Source: Flaccisagitta enflata (taxonomy: Eukaryota). From it: a DNA stretch of 64,000 bases. The stretch lies in NCBI GenBank assembly GCA_965153355.1, contig OZ231126.1:6634001-6698000 (forward strand), given 5' to 3'. The position numbers and the translations under genes are program-made. Shown here one piece after another: positions 1,390 to 38,460 of the stretch (within the stretch, counting starts at the first letter, position 1; every line of letters starts with the position of its first letter). A model generated the notes under the pieces. The model had not been told where the DNA came from, did not search any database, and saw only the letters and a program-made list of their open reading frames with translations.

Positions 1390-2292
1390 TAAGTGCCATA
1401 CTTAGGCATTGTTGGATTGGAAGGCAATAAAACAAATGTGTCATTTTTCCCATTTTTGTTGTAGTTTGGCACTCTGTGCATTCTTGGAGTGACAATAAGG
1501 AGGATAGGAAAGTTAGGCACAAACAAGTTAATCTTGCCACTTTTGTTCAAGTTGGGCACTCTCGGCATTCTTGGAGTGACAAGTGGGAGGAAAGGAAATT
1601 TAGGCACAAATCAGTTAATTTCGCCATTTTTGTTCTAGTTTGACACTCTGTGCATTCTTTGAGTGACAAGTAAGAGGAATGGAAAGTTAGGCACAAATCA
1701 GTTAATCTCGCCATTTTTGTTCTAGTTTGGCACTCTGTGCATTCTTGGAGTGACAAGTGGGAGGAAAGGAAAGTTAGGCACAAATCAGTTAATCTCGCCA
1801 TTTTTGTTCTAGTTTGGCACTCTGTGCATTCTTGGAGTGACAAGTGGGAGGAAAGGAAAGTAAGGCACAAATCAGTCAATCTCGCCATTTTTGTTCTAGT
1901 TTGACACTCTGTGCATTCTTGGAGTGACAAGTAAGAGAAAAGGAAATTTAGGCACAAATCAGTTAATCTCGCCATTTTTGTTCTAGTTTGGCACTCAGTG
2001 CATTCTTGGAGTGACAAGTAAGAGGAAAGGAAATTTAGGCACAAATCAATTAATCTCGCCATTTTTGTTCTAGTTAGACACTCTGTGTATTCTTGGAGTG
2101 ACAAGTAAGAGGAAAGGAAATTTAGGCACAAATCAGTTAATCTCGCCATTTTTGTTCTAGTTTGACACTCTGTGCATTCTTGGAGTGACAAGTGGGAGGA
2201 AAGGAAAGTTAGGCACAAATCAGTTAATCCTGCCATTTTTGTTCTAGTTTGGCACTCATTGCATTCTTGGAGTGACAAGTGGGAGGAAAGGA
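1390..2292. repeat. 87-bp minisatellite, ~10 copies
   Basis: TTGGAGTGACAAG recurs at an 87-bp period; explains the 29-aa periodic ORF 1547-2413. Confidence 0.92.
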
Positions 2293-2414
2293 AACGAGGA
2301 AAATCATTCTTTCCATCATCGGTAAACCATTTCAAACTGAATTCAAAATGAGGCAGAGAGAATTTGTTTACAATGTAATCACCTTGTGTCAATATCTCTC
2401 TGGATACATTCACT

Positions 2415-9917: not shown

Positions 9918-11075
9918 TGAATTGGCAGCCACTGGAGAGATGAACAGACCCGCAAACCAACTGCTCATACACACAGAAATTGGCAGCTACCGGAGAGATG
10001 AACAGACCAGCAAACCAACTGCTTATAGACACGTAAATTAGCAGCCGCTGGAGAGATGAACAGACAGACAAAGCAATCGCTCACAGACACGGAATTTGGA
10101 AGCCACTGGAGAGATGAACGGACCAACAAACCAACTGCTCATAGACAAGGAGATTGGCAACCGCTGAACAGATGAATGGACCAACAAACCAACCGCTCAT
10201 GGACACGAAAATCGGCAGCCGCTGGAGAGATGTATGGACAGACAAACCAACTGCTCATAGACACGGAGATTGGCAGCCGCTGGAGAGATGAATGGACCGA
10301 CAAACCAACCACTCATGGAAACAGAAATTTGCAGCCATTGGAGAGATGAACGGACCGACAAACCAACTGCTCATAGACACGGGATTGGCAGCCACTGGAG
10401 AAATGAATTGACAGAAAACCAACTGTCTATAGACACGGAAATTGGCAGCCACTGGAGAGATGAATGGACAGACAAACCAACCACTCATGGAAACGGAAAT
10501 TGGGCCGCTGGAGAGATGAATGGACAGACAAACCAACCACTCATAGACACGGAAATTGGCAGCCACTGGAGAGATAGATGGACAGACAAACCAACTGTCC
10601 ATAGACACGGAAATTGGCAGCCACTGGAGGGATGAATGGACAGACAAACCAACCGCTCATAGACACGGAAATTGGCAGATGCTGGAGAGATGAATGGACC
10701 GACAAACCAACTGTCTGTAGACACGGAAATTGGCAGCTGCTGGAGAGATGAATGGACCAACAAACCAACCGCTCATAGACACGGAAATTGGCAGCCACTG
10801 GAGAGATGACTGGACAGACAAACCAACTGTCCATAGACACGGAAATTGGCAGCCGCTGGAGAGATGAATGGACAGACAGATAAATTGCTCATGGACACGG
10901 AATTTTGCATATGATGGAGAGACAAACAAACAGACAAACTGCTTATAGACACAGAAATTGGCATACGATGGAGAGATGAACAATCAGACAAACTAACCGC
11001 TCATAGACATGGAAATTGGCATAAGATGGAGAGATAAACAGACAGACAGACAAGAAAATTGGCATACGGTGGAGA
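9918..11075. repeat. 58-bp minisatellite, ~20 copies
   Basis: GACACGGAAATTGGCAGCCACTGGAGAGATGAATGGACAGACAAACCAAC units. Confidence 0.92.
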
Positions 11076-13249: not shown

Positions 13250-15110
13250 GCGTGACTTTTCCCTTTTCTCTCTCCCTTTCCTTCAATGTTCTCCTTACTA
13301 TCTTTTACGGAAATTTCCCCTTTCTCCTTTCTCTTGCCTTTTCCTTTATTGTTTTCCTTACTCTTTTTTTCTTTTCTCTTTTCTCTTCCCTTTTCCTTCA
13401 ATGTACCCCTTACTCTCTATCTGGAAACTTCCCTATTGTCCTCTCTCTTGCCTTTTCCTTCATTGTTTTCCTTATTCTCTTTTTCTTCTCTCTTTTCTCT
13501 CACCCTTTCCTTCAATGTTCTTCTTACTCTCTTTCCGGAAATTTCCCTATTCTCCTTTCTCTTGCCTCTTCCTTCATTGTTTTCCTTCCTCTCTTTTTCT
13601 TTTCTTTTTTCTCTTGCCCTTTCCTTCAATGTTCTCCTTACTCTCTTTTACGGAAATTTCCCTTTTCTCCTTTCTCTTGCCTTTTCCTTCATTGTTTTCC
13701 TTATTCTCTTTTTCTTTTCTCTTTTCTCTTGCCTTTTCCTTCAATGTTCTCCTTACTATCTTTTACGGAAATTTCCCTTTTCTCCTTTCTCTTGCCTTTT
13801 CCTTCATTGTTTTCCTTACTCTCTTTTTCTTTTCTCTTTTCTCTTGCCTTTTCCTTCAATGTACCCCTTACTCTCTTTTACAGAAATTTCCCTTTTCTCC
13901 TCTCTCTTGCCTTTTCCTTCATTGTTTTCCTTATTCTCTTTTTCTTCTCTCTTTTCTCTCGCCCTTTCCTTCAATGTTTTTCTTACTCTCTTTCCGGAAA
14001 TTTCCCTATTCTCCTTTCTCTTGCCTTTTCCTTCATTGTTTTCCTTCCTCTCTTTTTCTTTTCTTTTTTCTCTTGCCCTTTCCTTCAATGTTCTCCTTAC
14101 TCTCTTTTACGGAAATTTCCCTTTTCTCCTTTCTCTTGCCTTTTCCTTCATTGTTTTCCTTATTCTCTTTTTCTTTTCTCTTTTCTCTTTTCTCTTGCCT
14201 TTTCCTTCAATGTACCCCTTACTCTCTTTTACAGAAATTTCCCTTTTCTCCTCTCTCTTGCCTTTTCCTTCATTGTTTTCCTTATTCTCTTTTTCTTCTC
14301 TCTTTTCTCTCGCCCTTTCCTTCAATGTTCTTCTTACTCTCTTTCCGGAAATTTCCCTATTCTCCTTTCTCTTGCCTTTTCCTTCATTGTTTTCCTTCCT
14401 CTCTTTTTCTTTTCTTTTTTCTCTTGCCCTTTCCTTCAATGTTCTCCTTACTCTCTTTTACAGAAATTTCCCTTTTCTCCTCTCTCTTGCCTTTTCCTTC
14501 ATTGTTTTCCTTATTCTCTTTTTCTTCTCTCTTTTCTCTCGCCCTTTCCTTCAATGTTCTTCTTACTCTCTTTCCGGAAATTTCCCTATTCTCCTTTCTC
14601 TTGCCTTTTCCTTCATTGTTTTCCTTCCTCTCTTTTTCTTTTCTTTTTCCTCTTGCCTTTTCCCTCAATGTTCTCCTTACTATCTTTTATGGAAATTTCC
14701 CTTTTCTCCTTTCTCTTGCCTTTTCCTTCATTATTTTCTTTATACTCTTTTTCTTTCCTTTTTTTTCTCGCCCTTTCCTTCAATGTTCTTCTTACCCTCC
14801 TTTACGGAAATTTCCCACTCCTCTTTTCTCTTGCCTTTTCCTTCGTTGTTTTCCTTACTCTCTTTTTCTTCTCTCTTTTCTCTTGCCCTTTCCTTCAATG
14901 TTCTCCTTACTCTCTATCTGGAAACTTCCCTTTTCTCCTTTCTCTTGCCTTTTCCTTCATTGTTTTCCTTATTCTCTTTTTCTTCTCTCTTTTCTCTTGC
15001 CTTTTCCTTCAATGTACCCCTTACTCTCTTTTACGGAAATTTCCCTTTTCTCCTTTCTCTTGCCTTTTCCTTCATTGTTTTCCTTACTCTTTTTTTATTT
15101 TCTCTTTTCT
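13250..15110. repeat. ~115-bp polypyrimidine satellite, ~16 copies, with ~3-unit higher-order structure
   Basis: CCTTCAATGT...GGAAATTTCCC recurs every ~115 bp; the + strand is overwhelmingly C/T. Confidence 0.92.
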
Positions 15111-15852
15111 CTTTAGTCTCTTTTCCGTCCCTTTCCGTCCCTTTCCGCCTTCTTTCCTTTCTTCATCAATTTCAGTCGCTGCTTAAATCCTCTTTAGACT
15201 TTACTCGATACTCACTCGCTTCGCTTTGCTTGATCCAACAATCTCTCACTCGCTCACTTCCTAGAATCATTTACTATCAAACCGCTCATTAATCGGACAA
15301 TGATGGGGTCAAGGTGTTTCACTTTCAGCGAAAACAGCAAAAAGATGAGTAAAGAGTGACCGACCGTGTCATGAATTGGGGATGAAAAGAACTTGAACAA
15401 CTGACCAAAGTCACGTTGGTGTTTTGACATCAGAATCTCCGTGAATGAATGAATGGACACTCGTATGAATGGATGAATGGATGAATGGATGAATGGATGA
15501 GTGGATGAATGAATGAACGAATAAAGAAAAGAAAAAATATTAGATGTGTCCTAAGAAAAACTGTAAAAAGCCAAATCAATTACAAAAAAAAAAAAAAAAA
15601 AGAAGAAAAAAAGAAAAAAAAAACGTAGAAAAGGACTCACCGACAAACCAATGCACGGATCGAAGGGTTGCTTCTAGATCCGCGTAGCACGCTGCTAAAA
15701 AAAACCAACACGTTTCTCTCTTCTTTCCTCCTTTCTTTTTTCTCTTTTTGTACCGATTAAACATTCATTATAAATGTGGATTCCTCCTTCTACTTCTCAG
15801 GTAAGTGGATTTGTATTTCCCATGAGTTAATTCTCTGTAGAACAGTTAAAGG

Positions 15853-29083: not shown

Positions 29084-29336
29084 AACTTAGGTCTGCCGTT
29101 GATATGTTATAAAGAAAGAATTGACTGAAAGACTGATTGTTTTGTGCTCTTAGTATAAAGATAGAATAATAGTTTGTGAGTTATTTATTTCTTCAACTGA
29201 TTTCAGAGGACCAGTGAATGGTGACGACAAAATGTATGAAGAAAAATTGCATAAAGGGAATCAGATTTATGCTACAGACTATTTCAGTGTTTATCAAGCA
29301 TACTAAATATATTACGATACTAAAATTTATACATTA

Positions 29337-29946
29337 CGCTGAGGAGAATACATTTTTTTTCATGCGGGGACCCAGAGGAGGGCCCAGATTTTTTTTATTT
29401 TGATGTAACTAATGTATTATAAAAATTTCAGGACCATAGCCGTTCTTAAACCTTCATCATATTGCACCTGAAAAATGGTTCATCCTTAAGGGGGCCAAAA
29501 TTTCAAAATCATTTTTCCTCAAATTTAATGCCAGATTCAGATTCCTTGTGAAAATCTTTGTCAGATACTGTATTTTCTTTTACCAAAATTTTGTTTTTAA
29601 ACTGAAAAAATGCAAAAAACCTCCAAAAATAAGGGTTTCTAAAAAACAAAGTCTTTTCAGAGGTTTTTTGCTTTTTTTTCAGCTTAAAAACAAAATTTTG
29701 AAAAAGGAAAATATAGTATCTGACAAAATTTTTTACAAGGAATCTGAATCTGGCATCAGTTCTGGGGAAAAATGAATTTGAAATTTTGGCCCCCTTCAGG
29801 ATGAGCCATATTACAAGTGCAATATCATGAATGTTCAAGAACATCTATAGTCCTGAAATTTTTAGAATAAATTAGTTACATCAAAATGATAATATCTGGG
29901 CCCTCCTCTGGGTCCCTGTATGAAAAAAAGTGTATTCTCCTCAGCG
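29337..29946. mobile_element. TA-flanked foldback element (610 bp, palindromic)
   Basis: TA|CGCTGAGGAGAATACA...GGGACCCAGAGGAGGGCCCAGAT ... ATCTGGGCCCTCCTCTGGGTCCC...TGTATTCTCCTCAGCG|TA; arms pair to ~29640. Confidence 0.9.
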
Positions 29947-30546
29947 TATTATACATGTTTCCGCAGATGAACATCAAAATGTTTTAGTGAGTTAGTTGCA
30001 AATTTCCTAGCGAGCCTTCTGTACCAGAAGTTGAACAATCAATGAGCAAGGTAAACGTTGAAAATGAAGGCAGAAATAAAGAACTACATATCAGTCAAAG
30101 GTAAAAGGAATCGAATTCCAAACTGGCTCCAAAAAACAATGTAGATGAGAAAATATGATATTCCCACTTTGAAAAGTAACGTGGTATCTACTGGCAAAAT
30201 AGCAAGTATACAATGAAAGGATGTTTAGTGCTACAACAATGTCATCAAAATACGGTAAACTTCCTTCTCTAACGGACAAAAGGGATATATGTTTGTTGTT
30301 TGTAGTCTTTCTTCAGCTGTTTCATGAAATCAGTATGAAAAAAAACTAGAAATTTGCATCTTTTATCTGGAAATTCCGTCACTAGGTGGTCTGTCAGAGC
30401 GAGATTAACAGCGTGCAATCTAGGTACGTGGGCAAGTATAAAGATACATCCCTGGCCAAGTGTTTTTATCTGAGGAGTCTAAAAGCCTTGGTCCCAAAAG
30501 GCTGTGATAAACAGTTATAAAGATATGAGCCCATGTTTGATAAAGT

Positions 30547-30976: not shown

Positions 30977-33900
30977 CTACAATTCACCCACATTCCTTGG
31001 GATGAACTCCACAACAAAAGGTAAGTTGATGAAATTGAGCTCGGCCAAATTCTGCTTATCTGAAAGCAGCACTCCGCCTGATCGCACCAGCCAATTTCCA
31101 TCAGTCACATCTCGATGCATCTTTGCCAAAAGGCCTTTCACCGCCTTGACGTTGTAGGTCGGTTTGATTTCCATCTTTATAGATGGCTGCCCACTCTTTG
31201 CAAACTCAATCCTGATTTCGGGTTTAAGAACTTCCAAAGTCGAACCCTCTGCGATGTGTAAGTTTGCATCTCTAATTGACGCCGTCGTTTCCACTGCAAA
31301 TTCCTCCTCTTGAATCGGATTTGGAATAACCTTTCCCTTGCATTTCAGTAAGAGGCTCTTGAAAGGGATGTCCTCTTCCATGCTTTTGACCAATTCTGTC
31401 ACTTTTCCGAAAATGTCGCTGAAATGAATGGAAGATCTTAATCTTTCCAGTTTAACCTGTCGCTCAACCGAACCATCCAAAGAGCCGTACTTAATGGTGA
31501 CATGGCTCTCCGTCTGAAGTGGAGCCAAGTGTCCTTGCATCAATCCTTCAGCGCAAGCTTGTTGCTCCAATTGTTCATAAGCCAATGCGTAGAGTTTTGG
31601 CATCGATTCAGTTCTCTCGCCTTTGAAAAATTTGAGGAAACAAAGATAAGAGTGAGGATAAAAGAATGGCAATCTGGAGAGAAAATAGAGAAGAATCTCC
31701 TGGAGGCTCGGTTTTGGCTTCCCACACATGATCAGCATGGACGCCGGGTTCTCGTGACCGTGTTGCAGTATGTTACGAATGAATCGCAACAGGTCCACGT
31801 AAGTCGTTATGTCAAGGGTGTTTCTACCCAAACCAAATTCCTCCATGACCACATCATCGATCTTCTTGTTCCACCCTCCAAGCCCGCCAATGACGAGGCA
31901 CGCGTTTTTCTCAGCTTCGGCGAACATCCACTTCATGGCTTTGTTGTTCTTTTGCCCTTTGAGCGAAGCGTTCAATTCGGATAAGATGGAAATCTTGTTG
32001 TCCGTGGATTGAAAGGCGGGAGTTTGAAGTGCCTCGGCCGCGGTCATTCCTCTTTGGAGAGCAAAGATCAATGAACACAAGTCAACGTTGGATAAACCCA
32101 CAAGATTCTCAATATTGACTGGATGAGAGGATGATTTTCCAGATACAAGATAAAAAATGATGTTGGCGACTGCGCTTATATCCTTTTGTTGTTCTTGGAT
32201 GTTGGTGGTCCCCAATAACGGCGTTTCTTCCATGGCCATTTCCAATGATCCGATGCAGGCTTGATGAAAACCACCCAGCTTTACCACCCACTTTCCAGTG
32301 GTATTGTCAAATCTGACAAATACAGATTCGATGGAGATATTGCGGTGAAAGATAGGACATTCTTGAGATTGCAAAAAGTCGACGGCGCCCAAAATTTGGT
32401 GGCAAATATCAACAACATCGAATGATGAACCATTGAAAAGCCCGCACAACTGTGCATCAAGAATAGAAGCATCAACCTTTTCAACAAACATATGGCCCAC
32501 CCTCTTAATGAATGGAAACCATGTGACAAAGGAAGTGTGAAGTCTGATGATGTTTGGATGATTGATCTGACCCAGAATCTTTACCTCTCTCCTGAAAGAT
32601 TCTTTTCCATCGCGATTTTCCATCAAAAACCGAACATGAAGATACTTTTTTCCCAATTTCTTGGCATAAATTGATTTACCCATTTGATACGAGAGTGCCG
32701 CTGCTAAAACTGCAAATATTCCTACACAACTGTATGGCACCACTTTCAGCTCTAAGATACATTCCATCACATGCGCGTGAAATTTTCCATCATCTCTGCA
32801 GCTGATGTTTTGTGGGAGGTTTTTAATGACTGTCCTTAACATATCTACGACATTGCATTCATTACAAAAGAAATCATTCCCTTCTAAGTAAACTTTTGTC
32901 TGTGGTAATAGCGAAAATTGAGATGGAAGTTTCAACAAGTTATTATACCTCAAGTCCAATGCTGAAAGATTTCTCATTAATAGCAATGAAGGACCATCGA
33001 TGCTGCTTATTTTGTTCCCTTGACAATCTAACGATGATATGTTTTCCAGATTAGACGAAAACTTGACAAACTCAAGTTCATTTTTGGAGAAGTCAGCGAA
33101 TATTTGGTCGTATGGCAGGCAAGAGGGTAAATTGTTGAGATTTCTTGAAGCACAGTTCATTTGCAGTATGTTTTTGCTCCATTGGCATGAGCAGGGTGTT
33201 GGACAGCATGGTATAGGTCCAAACTGTGGTAAGAAATGCATCAAAGTTCTATCATTCCATGAGCAGCTGCAAATCCATGGATTTTTGGCAAGGTACACTT
33301 TTTTTAAGCTGTTGATCTTTTGCATAGTTTGAGGCCTTATGTTAGAAATATGGTTACCGTATACATCAAGAGTTTTTAGTTCAGGCAACCCTTCTATGAA
33401 AGAAATGTTTTTCAGTTGATTGCTGTGCAGGAAAAGTTCCTTCATTGTAGAATCCTGGAATTGGTTCATATCAATCTCCTCGATTTGATTATGGCTTAAG
33501 TTAAGAGCAACAAGGGCGTCATATTCGTCGCCATCGATGCGACCACTAAAGTGTTTGATTCTGTTGTGACTTAAGTCCAGAGGTTCGATAGGGATAGATA
33601 TGAAGCAAAAGCTGTCAGGCTCAATGGTCGAAATTTTGTTACCCTGAAGCTTCAAACTCATAGTGAACCCTGTTGGAACGTCATTGTCTTTGAAGAAAGA
33701 AAAGTCACTGGTTGAAATTGTTTCAATCATGTTATTGCTGAGATCTAAAAACTCCAGAGTGACGAGACCTATGAAAGATACGAATTTCAGATTTTGTATT
33801 CTATTGTGGCCAAGACTTAGTTTTCTTAATCGGGTACAGTTTGAAAACGCACCGTTTTCTATATTGGTAATTTGGTTGTAGTCAAGATCCAGAATCTCAA

Positions 33901-35179
33901 GTTCTTTTTGATCATCAAAAACTCGGCTTTGAATTCGTGTCAAACGATTGCGACAGAGATGTAAGTCACGTAGATCTGTTTGCCCTTTCAATAAAAGTGG
34001 ATGAATATCCTCGATACGATTATCACCTAGACTAAGGCTATCAAGATGAAGATCGTGAAATGCATATACATCAATCACGCTCACGTGGCAGAATTGGATC
34101 CACAAATCGCTGAGATGTTTTATATTTTTGAACATATTTCGTGTTAATGTTGTAATTGGACTAATTCTTATGTCTAGCGTTTTCGTGTTCAACTCAAGAA
34201 ATGGAGGGATTTCAGTGAGACAATGTCCAATCTTAACATAATCCATCACAGTCTTAGTCACTAGACTTTTTGCACCCAGTGTAATATTTGTCTTGCAACA
34301 TGGGTTTCTCGAGGGTGATCCGAGGTCAATGTCCTGCATAACAGTTGAATTGATAAAACCTGTGGGTATGGATTCGATTGGATTGTTAGTCAATTCTAAA
34401 ATAATTAAACTAGACAAAGGACGTATGAACTTGATTTGTTCCGAGGATAGGTTGTTTGAATCAAGATACAAAGTCCACAAATCTCTTAGGTGATCGAATG
34501 CATTTGGATGAATCGTGGATATTTCATTTCCCTCTAGTATCATATGCTTCAAACCGACTTGGTTCTTAAAAAGATCTTTTTCAATTTTGTTAAATCGTGT
34601 ATTACATATCCATATTTGTTGCAAGTTGATCATCCCGTCAAAAACCCCCACCTCGATGTCAGTCAGTTGAGAGTCATAAAACCCAACATGACGAAACGAT
34701 TTTTGATTCGTTCCAGAAAAAAAATGTTTCCCTATACTCATTAAACGGCTACCAAACAAAGCAAAGGAACTTATGTGTTTATAATCTGATAAAAATCCAT
34801 CTTCAATCTTTTCTAAATTCAACTCAGGAAGAAACATGATGGTGAACAAAGGTTTCGTTGAGGCATTGAAGAGGAACGGAAAATTAGGATTGTCTGTTTT
34901 CGCATTTTTCATTATGTCCCGCGTCACGACAGTGCAACCCATTCTTCTATAGCGCCAACTACATCCCCAGTCGTCCCAACCCTTCTCAAACTTTTCGTGG
35001 CAAATGAGCTCACAGTCCGCCGCTTCTTCTCCATGAAAATGCGTCGCTGAATCCAGAAAAATTTCTTCTGGATTTTTCGGAGGCTCCTTGGAAAAGGACG
35101 TCATTCTGTATGCCACGGTATTGAACGCCATAAGCAGAAGAAGCCACACGATGGACCAACGAGCATCCATCATCCCCAT
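30977..35179 (-). CDS. Single-pass receptor, ~1400 aa: signal peptide, Toll-like LRR ectodomain, TM, pseudokinase, KEN (IRE1/RNase L-type) ribonuclease, 2x ubiquitin-like
   Basis: Uninterrupted 4.2-kb high-complexity ORF. The track start at 35263 is a TTG; the first ATG is at 35179 (GTG-ATG-G context) and is followed by hydrophobic WSIVWLLLLMAFNTVA. Many LxxLxLxxNxI repeats; NPWICSC, CPTPCSC and NDFFCNEC caps; hydrophobic VVPYSCVGIFAVLAAALSY then basic KKLGKK; kinase motifs REVKIL/HPNIIRL/HRN/VKLGGF; KEN motif DLLRFIRNILQH...YFLSRLP; ubiquitin-like C-terminal pair. Confidence 0.93.
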   Translation of the reverse strand: MGMMDARWSIVWLLLLMAFNTVAYRMTSFSKEPPKNPEEIFLDSATHFHGEEAADCELICHEKFEKGWDDWGCSWRYRRMGCTVVTRDIMKNAKTDNPNFPFLFNASTKPLFTIMFLPELNLEKIEDGFLSDYKHISSFALFGSRLMSIGKHFFSGTNQKSFRHVGFYDSQLTDIEVGVFDGMINLQQIWICNTRFNKIEKDLFKNQVGLKHMILEGNEISTIHPNAFDHLRDLWTLYLDSNNLSSEQIKFIRPLSSLIILELTNNPIESIPTGFINSTVMQDIDLGSPSRNPCCKTNITLGAKSLVTKTVMDYVKIGHCLTEIPPFLELNTKTLDIRISPITTLTRNMFKNIKHLSDLWIQFCHVSVIDVYAFHDLHLDSLSLGDNRIEDIHPLLLKGQTDLRDLHLCRNRLTRIQSRVFDDQKELEILDLDYNQITNIENGAFSNCTRLRKLSLGHNRIQNLKFVSFIGLVTLEFLDLSNNMIETISTSDFSFFKDNDVPTGFTMSLKLQGNKISTIEPDSFCFISIPIEPLDLSHNRIKHFSGRIDGDEYDALVALNLSHNQIEEIDMNQFQDSTMKELFLHSNQLKNISFIEGLPELKTLDVYGNHISNIRPQTMQKINSLKKVYLAKNPWICSCSWNDRTLMHFLPQFGPIPCCPTPCSCQWSKNILQMNCASRNLNNLPSCLPYDQIFADFSKNELEFVKFSSNLENISSLDCQGNKISSIDGPSLLLMRNLSALDLRYNNLLKLPSQFSLLPQTKVYLEGNDFFCNECNVVDMLRTVIKNLPQNISCRDDGKFHAHVMECILELKVVPYSCVGIFAVLAAALSYQMGKSIYAKKLGKKYLHVRFLMENRDGKESFRREVKILGQINHPNIIRLHTSFVTWFPFIKRVGHMFVEKVDASILDAQLCGLFNGSSFDVVDICHQILGAVDFLQSQECPIFHRNISIESVFVRFDNTTGKWVVKLGGFHQACIGSLEMAMEETPLLGTTNIQEQQKDISAVANIIFYLVSGKSSSHPVNIENLVGLSNVDLCSLIFALQRGMTAAEALQTPAFQSTDNKISILSELNASLKGQKNNKAMKWMFAEAEKNACLVIGGLGGWNKKIDDVVMEEFGLGRNTLDITTYVDLLRFIRNILQHGHENPASMLIMCGKPKPSLQEILLYFLSRLPFFYPHSYLCFLKFFKGERTESMPKLYALAYEQLEQQACAEGLMQGHLAPLQTESHVTIKYGSLDGSVERQVKLERLRSSIHFSDIFGKVTELVKSMEEDIPFKSLLLKCKGKVIPNPIQEEEFAVETTASIRDANLHIAEGSTLEVLKPEIRIEFAKSGQPSIKMEIKPTYNVKAVKGLLAKMHRDVTDGNWLVRSGGVLLSDKQNLAELNFINLPFVVEFIPRNVGEL
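30980..31504 (-). other. Two tandem ubiquitin-like domains (aa ~1254-1347 and ~1349-1428)
   Basis: Ubl2 IRIEFAKSGQPSIKMEIKPTYNVKAVKGLLAK...WLVRSGGVLLSDKQNLAELNF parallels ubiquitin [30 protein letters not shown]...LIFAGKQLEDGRTLSDYNI. Ubl1 ends LLLKCKGKVI...SIRDANLHIAEGSTLEVL (cf. LSDYNIQKESTLHLVL). Confidence 0.7.
31628..32011 (-). other. KEN / RNase_2-5A ribonuclease domain (aa ~1085-1212)
   Basis: Colinear by eye with the IRE1/RNase L KEN domain: PAFQSTDNKISILSELN (cf. HPFFWS..KQLQFFQDVSD), GWNKKID (cf. DWRENIT), DLLRFIRNILQH (cf. DLLRAMRNKKHH / DLLKFIRNLGEH), YFLSRLPFFYPHSY (cf. YFTSRFPHLLAHTY). Confidence 0.88.
32009..32644 (-). other. Protein kinase-like domain, predicted catalytically dead (aa ~874-1085)
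   Basis: LHVR (VAVK equivalent), FRREVKILGQINHPNIIRL, ICHQILGAVDFLQSQECPIFHRNISIESVFV, VVKLGGF, KDISAVANIIFYLVSG, TAAEALQTPAF. No GxGxxG; HRD is HRN; no DFG. Confidence 0.85.
32681..32746 (-). other. Transmembrane helix (aa ~840-861)
   Basis: VVPYSCVGIFAVLAAALSYQM directly after the LRRCT, followed by GKSIYAKKLGKK (positive-inside rule). Confidence 0.8.
32759..34846 (-). other. LRR ectodomain, multiple-cysteine-cluster (Drosophila Toll-type) layout
   Basis: About 20 LRRs (e.g. LEILDLDYNQI, LRKLSLGHNRI, LEFLDLSNNMI), LRRCT NPWICSC (aa 661), internal LRRNT CPTPCSC...NCASRNL (aa 687-709), ~3 more LRRs, second LRRCT NDFFCNEC...C...C (aa 796-835); about ten N-x-S/T sequons. Confidence 0.9.
35111..35179 (-). 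other. Signal peptide (aa ~29-51)
   Basis: MGMMDARWSIVWLLLLMAFNTVA|Y: basic residue, hydrophobic core, small residues (T-V-A) before the likely cleavage site. Confidence 0.8.
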
Positions 35180-35207
35180 CACGAAGGTGCAAACAGGATG
35201 ACCGTAT

Positions 35208-35249
35208 CTTTTAGAAAACGGGAAAAGGGAATAATAAACAAAATTAGTA
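35208..35249 (-). promoter_or_regulatory. Probable 3' splice acceptor of a 5'-UTR intron
   Basis: Minus strand TACTAAT (branch-point-like), then TTTGTTTATTATTCCCTTTTCCCGTTTTCT (pyrimidine tract), then AAAAG; the ATG lies 28 nt downstream. Confidence 0.6.
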
Positions 35250-36056
35250 CCGCCGCTGCTCAAGCTATTGTTTGCATTTTGGTGTATTGGTATTCAGTTT
35301 CTTATGATTCTGAATCTCTTGAAAACCCTATGGACTGGTAAGCCTCTCAGTTTGTCTATATGTCGGTCTGTCTGTCTGTCCATCTTTCCGTCAGTTTATC
35401 TAACTGGCTGTCTAACTGTCTATCTATCTGTCTGTTTCTCTCTGTCTGTGTCTATGTCTGTGTGTTACTATGTAATTTGTGTTCATGCACATCTATGTCA
35501 TCATATAGGTGAATGGGTGGTGATGAGGAGGTGATTGGGGGGTGACAGGTACTTATTTTTTGTGGTGGTGGGATCCGGAGCACTGTGTGTCATGTGTAAA
35601 ACTCAGGCGGAAAAGAACTTAATGATAAGGAAAAAAACAAACAAACAAACATAATATACTTCTTGTTGGTCTAGTACGACAAAAGTTTTACTGAAGGGCT
35701 TTCAAACCTTTGGGCTGCTACGACAAAAGAAATTGTCTCGCTAAGCCAACGAGAAGAGTCCTTTCATATTCTTTATGCTAAAGCATTTTTCCGCCTTCTT
35801 ATTGCACATTTGTTATGTAACCTTGGGGACATAAAAAATGGCGAATTTTGGAAAACTAAATCTATCTACCTTAATTTGAAAAAAAAACTATAAACAAGGC
35901 CAACACCTATAAGTCGCGTGCAGGACATAAATAGCTTAAGATGACTAAAATTGAGTTTAAATGACTCAAGGTGACCTGAAATGACTTAATTCTTAAAATG
36001 ACTTAAAATAACTTTAATGACCATATTGACCTTATTGACTTTAGTGACTTCATATA

Positions 36057-36411
36057 CCATATTTTCTCCATTTATCGCCCCCCCCTCCAATTAACGCCCC
36101 CCCTATTTTTCTTCTCTAGATTGTTGATAAATGGGAAGAAGAAAAGGCAAATTGTCAAAGATTTTGAATTTTTTCAGTGCTTTTTCAGTGCTTTTTCAGC
36201 GCTTTCATTGAAAATAGGCAAAAAAAATCATATCAAAATCACTTCATTGTACTTTATCTTATAATTCTGATATTTCAAGTAGTATTCATGGTAAAAAACG
36301 TTAGATAACAATGTACGTTTATATCAAAAGGGGGCGCTAATTGGAGGGTAAAATGACAATGTCATTTTTCAATTTCAAAAGCGCCCGGGGCGCTAACTAG
36401 AGAAAATACGG
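36057..36411. mobile_element. pogo/Tigger-like MITE inserted in a family-A element
   Basis: TA|CCATATTTTCTC...CGCCCC ... GGGGCG...GAGAAAATACGG|TA. Confidence 0.75.
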
Positions 36412-37850
36412 TAACTTAACATGACTTAAAATGACTTAAAATGACTTAGAATGACTTATAATGGCATTTGGGAAGGAGCCCGAAAAGCTTAAAAACGCCA
36501 AAAAAGTAAAAAGGGGACCGACCGACCGACCGACCAACTGACCAACCGACGGACCAACAAAGCGTAGCATGCGACTAAAAATTGGTGATCATTTTGAAGC
36601 TCTGCGTGATCTTTCAAATGAGACGATGCTGGTTGTCCTAGCTTTATCTGTTTAAAAATTGCACTGGGATGAAGTCAGGTTGTCAGGAATTTGAGAATTT
36701 GCTACAGCATTTGCATGTTTTTCGTTTTATCTGTGGTTAATAGAAGTAGGAAAGATAAAAGTTCAGATAGAGAAGAAACTTAACAAGAGGAAAGTGAAAG
36801 AGAAGAAATATAACAAGATGAAAGTGAAAGGTTTAGTTTGAAAGGAGGAAAAATTAGAATAGACAGGCCTAACCAGAGCGGGCTGTGGACCGTCTTAAAA
36901 ATAAGGCTGGGTTAAAGCTTCCATCCCCAATTTATCTCTGGTAAAAATTTTTGAAAAGAGCTCTACATATCATACCTGTCATTCATCAATTGACTAATGC
37001 CAATTGACGAATAACAAATATGAAAGTAAGCATCCCTTCCATTATTAACAAAGAAAAAAGGAAAAAGAAATGTTACGGTGAAAATGAAAGGCGAAATGAA
37101 AAGTTACAGTAAAAGCAAAATTGTACATGAGGATAACAGAATGAAAAAAAAAAAAAAGTGTGAAAATTAGAGAGCAAAAAGCTTAGAAAAGAAAGAGAAA
37201 TGGTGGAAAGGAAAGAATGAACCCTCAGGAGAAGGCTTCTGAAAAGTAAACATCAACTGAAGCCCTCAGTGACCATAAAACAGGTGACCACTGAGAGAAG
37301 AATGGTGAAAGTAAGAGGATTAAGAGGAAGGAATGAAAAATTGACCAATAAGAGGGCAAACAGACACATGAGCACATCAAGTATCATACTGGCAAGAAAA
37401 ATGAGAAAGAGCAATGGAAAAATAAGATAGAAGAGATAGTCAAGATAACTATCAGTTTATAGTTAGAATTATAAAAACAATTATCATAGATCAATAAAAT
37501 AAATTGAATTAAGATAAACCAAATCAAATCTGACAAATTTGAAACAAAAATAAAATAGAATCAGACTAAATCAAACCTAATTAGATTTAAAATATGCATA
37601 CCAGTCTCTAAAGGAGAATGTCCAGACCTCCGAATTCCCACCCATACAGAAGTGCAAAATTCAAAATATTTAGCTAATTTCTAGTTAGTTAACTATTTCA
37701 AATTAATCTATTTTACTAACTCTAAGGAGGGAGGGGAATGGTGTTAACCTTTCAGAGCTAGGCTACATAATAGCATCTAGATGAAAGCAATATAATAAAT
37801 TCAGGCTACATAATAACATCTGAATTTATTATATTGAGCTAGCTAAAAAG

Positions 37851-38460
37851 TTATTGGCTAAGAGTGGTGAATCTCTGAGGGATAATGTCAGGTAATGGTT
37901 GGGAAAAGGAGGGAATTAAGGAGTTGGGAGGGGTACTGACTGGTGAAGTGTTATCTTGAGGGGTGTTAAAAATGCTACTAAACCATACTTGACTATTTAC
38001 AGGAATGCTCCATCTTTCAAATTCAGCTCTATAGTTACCTACCACTAGTCTAAATTCTTTTGCTAATTTATCTATGCTATAGCCTCGATTGATTAGTGTG
38101 TTTCCTAAAAGTCTAACTCTATCTGTGAAATCTGTAATAAATGTACACAACCTTTGGTATCTAAGAATCTGACTATAAAAAACTTTATAACAAATCTTAC
38201 TATCTATGTTACTTTCTATGAAGGGCATTGAAACCACATCAAAGGGGAAGCTATCTGTTTTATTGTACACCCTAGTTCTAAATCTACCTTCTACTATAGT
38301 TACCTGCATATCTAATACAGTCGCCTGGCTATAGTTACCTGCATATCTAATACAGTCGCCTGGCTAAGATCCTCGTTCTCCTGTGATAGTTCTAAACTAG
38401 GTGGATATATATCTCTAGCTAAGTCTCTAAAATTATCCAGATTGTTTGTTGTAACATAGA
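37851..38460 (-). pseudogene. 5'-truncated Penelope-like retroelement RT fragment (C-terminal RT/thumb, Naiad/Chlamys-like)
   Basis: DIYPPSLEL..ENE...ATVLDMQVTIVEGRFRTRVYNKTDSFPFDVVSMPFIESNI...YSQILRYQRLC...F..R...L...L..RGY matches PLE RT C-terminal motifs. The frame is broken by a 35-bp tandem duplication (38294-38363); no GIY-YIG downstream. Confidence 0.75.

Follow-up and report, generated by a model that had tools for sequence, protein, structure and literature searches.

Does a KEN domain that retains the arginine, asparagine and histidine of its active site and carries leucine in place of the catalytic tyrosine still cleave RNA, and in what kind of protein does it reside? This question is posed by a gene in a 64-kb window (the whole stretch of DNA analysed here), in which an initial annotation had marked a KEN domain at positions 31628–32011. 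The marked span corresponds to residues 1057–1184 of a 1400-residue open reading frame, the only one exceeding 700 aa in the window.

30977..35179, minus strand: complete coding sequence of P0001, 1400 codons plus stop, uninterrupted and intronless

The first ATG of the reading frame lies at 35179 and is preceded by 38 in-frame codons without an ATG. Counted from this start, the residues of interest are L1122, Y1127, R1135, N1136 and H1140; the residue numbers of the initial annotation were all 28 too high. The gene is solitary and embedded in repeat-rich DNA, with very high-copy repeats on its flanks. A tblastn search with nine family proteins retrieved no second gene copy from the 64-kb window, and an Rfam scan of the window gave no matches. 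A prokaryotic or viral origin was considered and rejected in view of the microsatellite-rich, eukaryotic character of the DNA in the window, together with the animal-like type of the encoded LRRs with Cys caps. RNA depth over the gene, in one poly(A) library from the same organism, was zero except for 0.37 in a single 267-base bin; this is weak evidence, as the check covered about 6% of the library (12.2 million records) and one sample under one condition.

Predicted domain architecture

Judged from its sequence, the protein is predicted to be a type-I transmembrane receptor in which a signal peptide, an LRR ectodomain and a transmembrane (TM) helix are followed by a pseudokinase, a KEN domain, a helical linker and a tandem of ubiquitin-like (Ubl) domains.

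35108..35179, minus strand: putative signal peptide, aa 1–24, MGMMDARWSIVWLLLLMAFNTVAY, a hydrophobic segment judged by eye from the sequence, with no dedicated predictor
32750..35107, minus strand: ectodomain, aa 25–810 (Pfam LRR_8, E 8.6e-66, 11 stretches)
32681..32749, minus strand: single TM helix, aa 811–833 (Kyte–Doolittle 19-residue window mean 1.96, aa 811–829)
32063..32644, minus strand: degenerate pseudokinase, aa 846–1039 (Pfam Pkinase 31.7 bits, exactly at the cut-off)
31580..32062, minus strand: KEN (HEPN-type) RNase domain, aa 1040–1200 (PF06479, match of the family profile to solved Ire1, fold Z 21.0 to IRE1)
31508..31579, minus strand: helical linker between KEN and Ubl, aa 1201–1224 (helix at model residues 366–386)
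31310..31507, minus strand: predicted ubiquitin-like domain 1, aa 1225–1290 (model m0e76e8912f76, pLDDT 91.5)
30986..31264, minus strand: predicted ubiquitin-like domain 2, aa 1306–1398 (VIA-align Z 10.3 to the Get5 UBL)

A hydrophobic N-terminal segment also opens the relative P0003, and counterparts of the TM segment are present in P0003, P0020 and P0005. The ectodomain consists of two LRR blocks with a pair of Cys-rich caps between them (aa 637–687) and a second, membrane-proximal Cys-rich cap region (aa 772–807), and contains 15 LxxLxLxxN sites. Its sequence matches in the PDB are extracellular LRR proteins, TLR3, Toll and TLR13 among them; the top LRR matches are generic (IGFALS, 1.3e-39; LGR4) and rank ahead of TLR3 (~5e-27) and Toll (9e-21). 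The succession of signal peptide, LRR block, Cys cap pair, second LRR block, membrane-proximal Cys cap and one TM helix is shared with Toll and those TLRs that have several Cys clusters. Unlike in these receptors, the cytosolic part has no Pfam match to a TIR domain and is wholly explained as pseudokinase–KEN–Ubl2. The N-terminal 810 residues comprise LRRs with no other family detected, an IRE1-type lumenal domain thus being absent, and no ankyrin family was matched in Pfam at E up to 1. Since ankyrin repeats are missing, the protein would have no 2-5A sensor.

The kinase half is predicted to be dead. Alignments with WNK1 and the family place HRN where HRD is expected (aa 946–948) and GGF where DFG is expected (aa 970–972), and the secondary structure of the model displays a short N-lobe of three strands and helix C, from which the strands of the Gly-rich loop are missing. 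With a kinase half of this kind, IRE1-style trans-autophosphorylation could not be the switch. The AlphaFold2 model of aa 830–1400 (pLDDT 93.3, pTM 0.89) finds its best Foldseek matches in the PDB among IRE1 kinase–RNase chains (E 2.7e-13, 385 columns). The VIA-align comparison gave Z 21.0 to IRE1 (rmsd 4.0, 331 aligned, model residues 3–366) and Z 18.7–17.4 to RNase L, with KEN placed directly C-terminal of the kinase fold and the joint IRE1/RNase L fold extending across model residues 1–367, as against Z of at most 16.2 and a coverage limited to model residues 1–231 for plain kinases. A homodimer prediction for two copies of aa 830–1215, computed without an alignment, scored 0.00 and is not evidence either way. 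ESM Atlas clusters matched by aa 830–1400 at 0.89–0.92 (generic kinase, IRE1-like, IKK-epsilon/TBK1-ULD) are leads only, and aa 1040–1400 had no usable match there.

The C-terminal tail is, according to the models, a tandem of two ubiquitin folds. Linear di-ubiquitin is matched by both halves in Foldseek (181 columns, E 2.4e-8), as is ISG15 (E ~1e-6), and VIA-align relates the second domain to the Get5 UBL (rmsd 2.4, 78 aligned) and to the di-Ubl of chicken OASL (7sbi_B; Z 9.2, rmsd 2.2, 71 aligned); the Pfam ubiquitin match to the second domain (E 0.005) stays below the cut-off. The protein ends in ...FIPRNVGEL, and the tail would not be a conjugatable modifier because the C-terminal Gly-Gly is missing. 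It is conserved among family members. OASL and ISG15 are similar in that two consecutive beta-grasp domains terminate the protein on an enzyme fold of the innate-immunity type, but they differ in that the tail here sits on a KEN RNase, not on an OAS fold, and lacks Gly-Gly. The OASL tail is a mimic of poly-ubiquitin.

Relatives of the protein

The homologue search found one relative and the profile search six, all ENA records, and the relatives all derive from short contigs. P0002 is a full-length relative with 38% identity, and the LRR–TM–pseudokinase–KEN layout recurs in P0002, P0003, P0020 and P0005, the last with its 5' end cut. Among the cluster members of ten proteins, the plant protein P0042 is the sole named one. 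A scan of metagenome contigs for KEN patterns produced 65 matches, none of them a confirmed relative. In the KEN tree, from which RNase L and P0135 were left out (P0135 because its phmmer match to this KEN domain was too short), the family forms a clade apart from the IRE1-like rows (support 100/98). The terminal branch of P0001 is short, 0.15 versus a median of 0.42.

The KEN domain and its catalytic core

The initial identification of a genuine KEN domain is borne out by Pfam: PF06479 (Ribonuc_2-5A/KEN) matches aa 1080–1185, and the match is not a chance one because it reaches E 3.5e-10 and 40.5 bits, where 23.3 would suffice, and coincides with the flagged span. The motif itself was likewise correctly located.

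31760..31795, minus strand: DLLRFIRNILQH, HEPN R-x4-H core with R1132, R1135, N1136 and H1140 (direct translation)

The core is spelled R1135-N1136-I-L-Q-H1140, i.e. an HEPN R-x4-H motif in which a polar residue follows the Arg. The initial annotation had made its case depend on conservation of R, N and H among homologues, and R1132, R1135, N1136 and H1140 are indeed kept in all 33 aligned near-complete KEN domains as well as in P0133 (34/34). Among the 67 rows of the full alignment, four motif-spanning fragments have lost the motif wholly or partly (all of R, N and H are missing from P0029 and P0051; P0040 retains H alone; P0078 has R and N without H), so catalytic loss does occur in the wider family. 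KEN is the protein's most conserved domain in four of the four pairwise comparisons that span it; its identity with P0133 is 74% (75% over the aligned KEN columns) versus 46% for the pseudokinase, and with P0002 62% versus 39%.

The catalytic residues of yeast Ire1 are Y1043, R1056 and H1061 (PMC3149027). The IRE1-like spacing that had been proposed is found here as well, L1122 standing 13 residues before R1135 and H1140 five residues after it.

Leucine in the column of the catalytic tyrosine

31814..31816, minus strand: codon CTT of L1122, which aligns with the catalytic Tyr of IRE1 (Y1043 in yeast) in the family alignment and the profile alignment to Ire1

The CTT codon is one base away from CAT (His). 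When the family profile is aligned to the solved IRE1 chains of yeast and human, the family consensus Tyr falls on the IRE1 Tyr, in agreement with the original alignment of this Tyr to a Leu in the present protein. Tyr occupies the column in 25 of 33 near-complete KEN rows. Within a subclade of nine members the column holds His in seven (the sister P0133 and six others), Gln in one and Leu in one, the Leu being confined to this protein among the KEN domains compared. The alignments thus indicate a history, at the position of the IRE1 general-base partner, from Tyr (family) to His (subclade) to Leu (this gene only), and the unique Leu in place of a His partner fits relaxed catalysis in this paralogue.

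How much such a replacement may cost can be gauged from yeast Ire1, in which H1061N lowers k2 by at least 3x10^5-fold and Y1043F by only about 10-fold (PMC3149027). Given a 10-fold effect only, cleavage may persist without the Tyr hydroxyl. Y1043F removes the hydroxyl from an aromatic ring and is not a Leu substitution, which limits its transfer to L1122. The same source reports that Y1043 also helps RNA binding, and it leaves undecided if the Tyr takes part in proton transfer at all (PMC3149027).

The initial annotation described the catalytic Tyr as displaced, judged the FIRN spelling nearer to that of RNase L than to that of IRE1, and expected a probably active RNase of possibly altered specificity. 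On the reading built from this, the displaced Tyr would stand in for the missing one, and the enzyme would be RNase L-like in specificity.

31799..31801, minus strand: codon of Y1127 (Tyr1155 in the original numbering), first residue of the catalytic helix (model residues 298–314, aa 1127–1143)

There is indeed a Tyr five residues beyond the Leu, and the F-I-R-N spelling is shared with P0135, an ankyrin–kinase–KEN protein; even so, we consider this combined proposal very improbable. The Y1127 column is hydrophobic across 33 rows (Y7/F12/V9/L2/I1/A2), and no conserved hydroxyl exists in it because the close relatives P0002, P0004 and P0007 have Phe. Y1127 stands at the start of the helix, 13 residues from H1140, a distance estimated at ~19 Å (1.5 Å per helical residue), whereas Y1043 and H1061 of Ire1 are 8 Å apart (PMC3149027), so that the Tyr is real but its catalytic role does not hold up. 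As for RNase L, the family KEN profile scores 32 bits with yeast Ire1 (E 8.1e-7), about 24.5 with human IRE1 and 15.1 with RNase L (E 0.12), the last match beginning only at the DLLR motif. The fold comparison ranks IRE1 above RNase L too, and ankyrin repeats are absent. By sequence profile and modelled fold, the pseudokinase–KEN module is thus nearer to IRE1 than to RNase L, contrary to what had been proposed.

The likeness to IRE1 extends to the overall plan of a type-I membrane protein with the sensor on one side and a kinase fold plus KEN on the other, and includes the best fold and profile matches, the R-N-x3-H core and the 13-residue spacing of the Tyr column. The protein differs from IRE1 in its LRR ectodomain in place of the lumenal domain, its predicted dead kinase, the Leu in place of the catalytic Tyr, the added tandem Ubl tail, Ile-Leu instead of the Lys-Lys that follows R-N in human IRE1, and the position of its family in a separate clade of the KEN tree. 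With RNase L it shares a pseudokinase joined to KEN, a hydrophobic residue after R-N and the fold similarity, but it is membrane-anchored, has no ankyrin repeats and is much more weakly related in sequence. RNase L is activated by dimerisation.

Possible function

The best explanation, to which we would give even chances, is that the gene encodes a clustering-activated and probably attenuated KEN RNase of an LRR receptor whose kinase is dead and which ends in a di-Ubl tail, as suggested by the sequence, the models and the analogy with known KEN enzymes. The KEN domain, predicted to be a metal-independent endoribonuclease of the HEPN type, would follow the logic of IRE1 and RNase L: ligand-driven clustering of ectodomains would bring the cytosolic pseudokinase–KEN units together, the pseudokinase serving as a dimerisation scaffold only, and the assembled KEN pair would cut cytosolic RNA by means of H1140, R1135 and N1136. 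The di-ubiquitin-like tail may recruit or regulate partners in the manner of the tandem Ubl of OASL. Since L1122 cannot transfer a proton, this paralogue would probably cut RNA more slowly than the relatives that carry His or Tyr, rather than not at all.

A less probable but serious competitor is a pseudo-RNase, in which the change from His to Leu at position 1122 has cost the domain useful catalysis, the protein now being an RNA-binding or scaffolding receptor that signals through the di-Ubl tail, or a decoy or regulator pairing with active paralogues. Such a role would accord with the uniqueness of the Leu in a subclade where seven of nine members, the sister included, have His and the ancestral residue is Tyr, with the loss of R/N/H from other family fragments, with a kinase half that is already a pseudoenzyme, with the similarity of the tail to poly-ubiquitin mimics, and with the near lack of RNA reads on the gene (in ~6% of one library). 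It is less easily reconciled with the intact R1132, R1135, N1136 and H1140, with KEN still ranking first in conservation in each comparison with a relative, with the short terminal branch, and with the mere ~10-fold value of the Tyr hydroxyl in Ire1 (PMC3149027). The near-zero RNA depth in the 6% that was read from a single poly(A) run, the lone position of the gene amid very high-copy repeats and its unique substitution at a catalytic position could also mark a silent or recently dead copy from a lineage-specific expansion, with a residue pattern devoid of functional meaning. We regard this as improbable, as the 1400-codon frame is intact from the signal peptide through the complete second Ubl domain, the domains are modelled with high confidence (pLDDT 93.3 and 91.5) and the terminal branch is short; immune-type receptors, moreover, are often silent unless challenged.

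Wider context

The two settings in which regulated KEN RNases occur are, to our knowledge, ER stress (IRE1) and 2-5A antiviral signalling (RNase L). No description of the LRR–TM–pseudokinase–KEN–Ubl architecture was found in the literature searched. Anantharaman et al. (2013; PMC3710099) described KEN as an HEPN RNase with an Rx4-6H motif, noted a KEN–ubiquitin fusion in rice and reported a lineage-specific expansion of KEN genes, with kinase-less copies, in the marine tunicate Oikopleura dioica; the table in that paper gives kinase, ankyrin, CCCH, UBI and BRCT as partners of KEN, and no LRR/transmembrane receptor form appears in it.

We tentatively suggest a broader scenario that is more doubtful than the attenuated RNase itself, namely that the family represents a novel class of membrane immune receptors in a marine eukaryote lineage, in which Toll-style LRRs would directly activate an IRE1/RNase L-type RNase, without a second messenger or kinase activity, with the di-ubiquitin mimic as a second output. 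The KEN site of the family would have been re-tooled from Tyr/His to His/His, a pair also seen in RNase A or T1, with this gene as a natural Leu variant. If this is true, the coupling of sensor clustering to RNA cleavage would be a reusable immune module, and a direct receptor-to-RNase pathway would exist outside vertebrates. The natural series of Tyr, His, Gln and Leu at one active-site position, with the rest constant, offers a ready test of the general-base partner in KEN, and the parallel between the tandem Ubl tail and OASL hints at a convergent logic among antiviral proteins.

The KEN domain and its reading frame

The minus-strand segment 31760-31795 encodes DLLRFIRNILQH and lies within an uninterrupted reading frame of 1400 codons, which runs from an ATG at 35179 to a stop codon at 30977-30979. 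This frame, encoding the protein P0001, is the sole long ORF in the window, the remainder of which consists of micro- and minisatellites. Counted from the ATG, the residues of interest are L1122, Y1127, R1135, N1136 and H1140; the numbers in the initial annotation were 28 too high and fit no start codon, because 38 in-frame codons upstream include no Met. Its KEN span (aa 1057-1184), on the other hand, agrees in position with a Pfam hit to Ribonuc_2-5A/KEN covering aa 1080-1185 (40.5 bits, cut-off 23.3; E 3.5e-10), and the KEN feature there is genuine, beyond chance. Essentially zero RNA reads map to the gene in one RNA library (~6% sampled), and pieces of it occur in two marine-metagenome runs, with 2-26 base differences per 155-343 bases.

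Domain architecture and relatives

The N-terminus of P0001 is a hydrophobic segment resembling a signal peptide, Pfam LRR_8 matches the first ~800 residues in 11 stretches (E 8.6e-66), and aa 811-829 constitute the only strong hydrophobic window. The ectodomain comprises two LRR blocks with a Cys-rich cap pair (Cys 637-687) between them and is ended ahead of the membrane by another Cys cap (Cys 772-807), an arrangement matching that of Toll-type ectodomains. The top PDB sequence matches of the LRRs are generic extracellular LRR proteins (IGFALS, 1.3e-39; LGR4), with TLR3 (about 5e-27) and Toll (9e-21) ranking below them.

AlphaFold2, run on aa 830-1400 with a 67-row alignment, gave a model with a pLDDT of 93.3 and a pTM of 0.89. 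Every one of the model's top PDB fold matches is an IRE1 kinase-RNase structure (Foldseek E 2.7e-13, 385 columns; VIA-align Z 21.0, rmsd 4.0, 331 aligned, model residues 3-366), and RNase L chains come next (Z 18.7-17.4); plain kinases score Z ≤16.2 and span the first ~230 residues only. The kinase half is a pseudokinase, with a weak Pfam protein-kinase match (aa 854-974, 31.7 bits, exactly the cut-off), HRN in place of HRD, GGF in place of DFG, and an N-lobe of three strands and helix C from which the Gly-rich-loop hairpin is absent. HRD is similarly degenerate in relatives (HGN, HCK, HGG and others); the long-branch outlier P0033 retains HRDLKxxN and DFG.

The last 186 residues form two consecutive ubiquitin-like (Ubl) folds (model pLDDT 91.5), for which Foldseek ranks linear di-ubiquitin (E 2.4e-8, 181 columns) and ISG15 (about 1e-6) best, the second Ubl scoring Z 10.3 against the Get5 UBL and Z 9.2 against the chicken OASL di-Ubl. 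The OASL tail is a poly-ubiquitin mimic. As the C-terminus of P0001 (...NVGEL) lacks Gly-Gly, its tail is not a conjugatable modifier. The tandem tail was found again in many family fragments.

An exhaustive HMMER search with P0001 aa 830-1400 retrieved 124 proteins at E ≤1e-3, 42 of these at E ≤1e-10, and P0002, P0133 and P0134 were added by word-based searches. All family members examined are encoded on short ENA contigs, and the LRR-TM-pseudokinase-KEN arrangement recurs in P0002, P0003, P0020 and P0005 (the last cut at its 5' end); scanning of JGI metagenome contigs confirmed no relatives. As partners of KEN, Anantharaman et al. 2013 (PMC3710099) name kinase, ankyrin, CCCH, UBI (rice) and BRCT, and they mention an expansion of kinase-less KEN in Oikopleura dioica. 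Our literature searches found no description of an LRR-TM-pseudokinase-KEN-Ubl protein, and the words 'LRR', 'leucine' and 'transmembrane' do not occur in the main text of a 2023 PNAS survey defining ten clades of RNase L homologues (PMC10400998), the figures and supplements of which carry the domain architectures and might include such a form.

Loss of the catalytic tyrosine

The initial reading of the F-I-R-N spelling as closer to RNase L than to IRE1 found no support. With the family KEN profile, yeast Ire1 reaches 32 bits (E 8.1e-7) and human IRE1 about 24.5 bits, against 15.1 for RNase L (E 0.12, the alignment starting only at the DLLR motif); the fold scores agree, and IRE1 is the only PDB match of the single P0001 sequence. 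The spelling itself varies freely: across the family, the first position can be F, I, M, L or V and the second I or V.

Across 33 near-complete KEN domains (21 from the family and 12 IRE1-like or plant) and in the sister protein P0133, the R-N-x-x-x-H core recognized initially (R1135, N1136, H1140) is retained without exception, as is R1132. Conservation is not blanket. In the 67-row alignment, four fragments that span the motif depart from it: R, N and H are all missing from P0029 and P0051, H alone is present in P0040, and P0078 has R and N without H. These four are not part of the 33 rows, as none yielded a near-complete KEN domain. After the pseudokinase C-lobe, where others carry LLRxIRNxxxH, P0029 reads ...LRIAYDLCDVP... 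and P0051 ...LNMAYDLCNIP..., which may represent a degenerate KEN-like unit of one family branch; a similar string, MYDLCNVP, occurs near the N-terminus of P0006.

The alignment of Leu to the IRE1 catalytic Tyr was also borne out: in profile alignments with solved chains, the family consensus Tyr, 13 residues before R-N, aligns with the yeast and human IRE1 Tyr, and L1122 occupies this column. Tyr is present in 25 of the 33 rows, His in five (P0002, P0003, P0004, P0007, P0026), Gln in P0009, Asp in the first KEN of the plant protein P0042, and Leu in P0001 only. With the fragment P0035 and P0133, both bearing His, the Tyr-less subclade counts seven His, one Gln and one Leu. KEN trees of family and IRE1-like rows (RNase L not among them) separate the two, with the family as a single clade (100/98). 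The Tyr-less proteins group together (98/97 in one tree, 94/97 in a later one), and P0133 is sister to P0001 (98/96). These states and trees are therefore most economically explained by two steps, replacement of Tyr by His at the root of the subclade and a later change from His to Leu on the branch leading to P0001; the L1122 codon is CTT, one base away from CAT. P0042, an IRE1-like protein of 922 aa named in NCBI, has two kinase-KEN units, with Asp in the Tyr column of the first and Tyr in that of the second. The first is a further natural loss of Tyr with R-N-x3-H intact.

Y1127, initially regarded as the displaced catalytic Tyr, does not qualify as such. Its column is mixed (Y7/F12/V9/L2/I1/A2 over the 33 rows): P0002, P0004 and P0007 carry Phe, and most IRE1-like rows Val, which makes it a hydrophobic position without a conserved hydroxyl. 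In the model the catalytic helix (model residues 298-314, aa 1127-1143) begins at Y1127, and L1122 sits in the preceding loop, as does yeast Y1043, on what the Ire1 paper calls the 'Y1043-bearing loop' (PMC3149027). By helix geometry, the 13 helical residues from Y1127 to H1140 would span about 19 Å at 1.5 Å per residue; the Y1043-H1061 distance in Ire1 is 8 Å (PMC3149027).

Is P0001 an active RNase?

In yeast Ire1, H1061N costs at least 3x10^5-fold and Y1043F reduces k2 about 10-fold only; Y1043 aids RNA binding, its part in proton transfer being left open by the authors (Korennykh et al. 2011, PMC3149027). KEN belongs to the HEPN superfamily, in which Rx4-6H is the primary active-site determinant (Anantharaman et al. 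2013, PMC3710099). P0001 could have become a pseudo-RNase, a possibility we consider real but ranked below that of a working RNase with a lower rate than its relatives bearing His or Tyr; the latter we give about an even chance. The slow RNase is favoured because P0001 retains a complete Rx4-6H, because KEN surpasses all other domains in conservation wherever a comparison spans it (KEN/pseudokinase identity 74/46% with P0133, 62/39% with P0002, 57/36% with P0003, 48/35% with P0004), and because the terminal branch of P0001 in the KEN tree is short (0.15). His in the Tyr column would be better suited than Tyr to transferring a proton, and the subclade offers a natural variant of interest for KEN catalysis.

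In the mechanism we propose, ligand binding would cluster the LRR ectodomains and the dead kinase, as in RNase L, would act as a scaffold for pairing; cytosolic RNA would then be cleaved by the KEN domains so paired, and the di-ubiquitin-like tail may recruit ubiquitin-binding partners or gate the RNase.

Repeats and other features of the window

1450-2294, tandem array, 87-nt unit x 9.7 copies, 92% matches, open frame translating as a 29-aa repeat
9920-11048, tandem array, 58-nt unit x 19.6 copies
13256-15113, 1.9-kb minisatellite with a period of 115/229/344, the 115-nt unit occurring in about 16 copies at 88-90% matches
29323-29960, foldback element, about 1 kb beyond the P0001 stop
35141-36742, high-copy repeats directly upstream of the P0001 start
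37851-38363, minus strand, 170-aa open frame in which Pfam gives nothing significant (top hit DUF4732 at E 0.031, below the cut-off)

The foldback has 228-nt arms, 86% complementary and 45 nt apart, flanked by a second pair of 70-nt arms. In the organism DNA run its summed contig depth reaches at least 10^5, in two marine metagenomes 10^3-10^4, and the element looks like a very high-copy MITE-like repeat. The 170-aa frame may be a mobile-element fragment. The 1.9-kb minisatellite is strongly C/T-rich on the plus strand, three frames being open through composition alone. At 36476-36742, RNA reads are stacked to a depth of about 84 on one strand and 75 on the other; 1070 of 1085 fit only in part and 964 jump back 40 (36555 to 36516), which points to a transcribed repeat with its true copies elsewhere.
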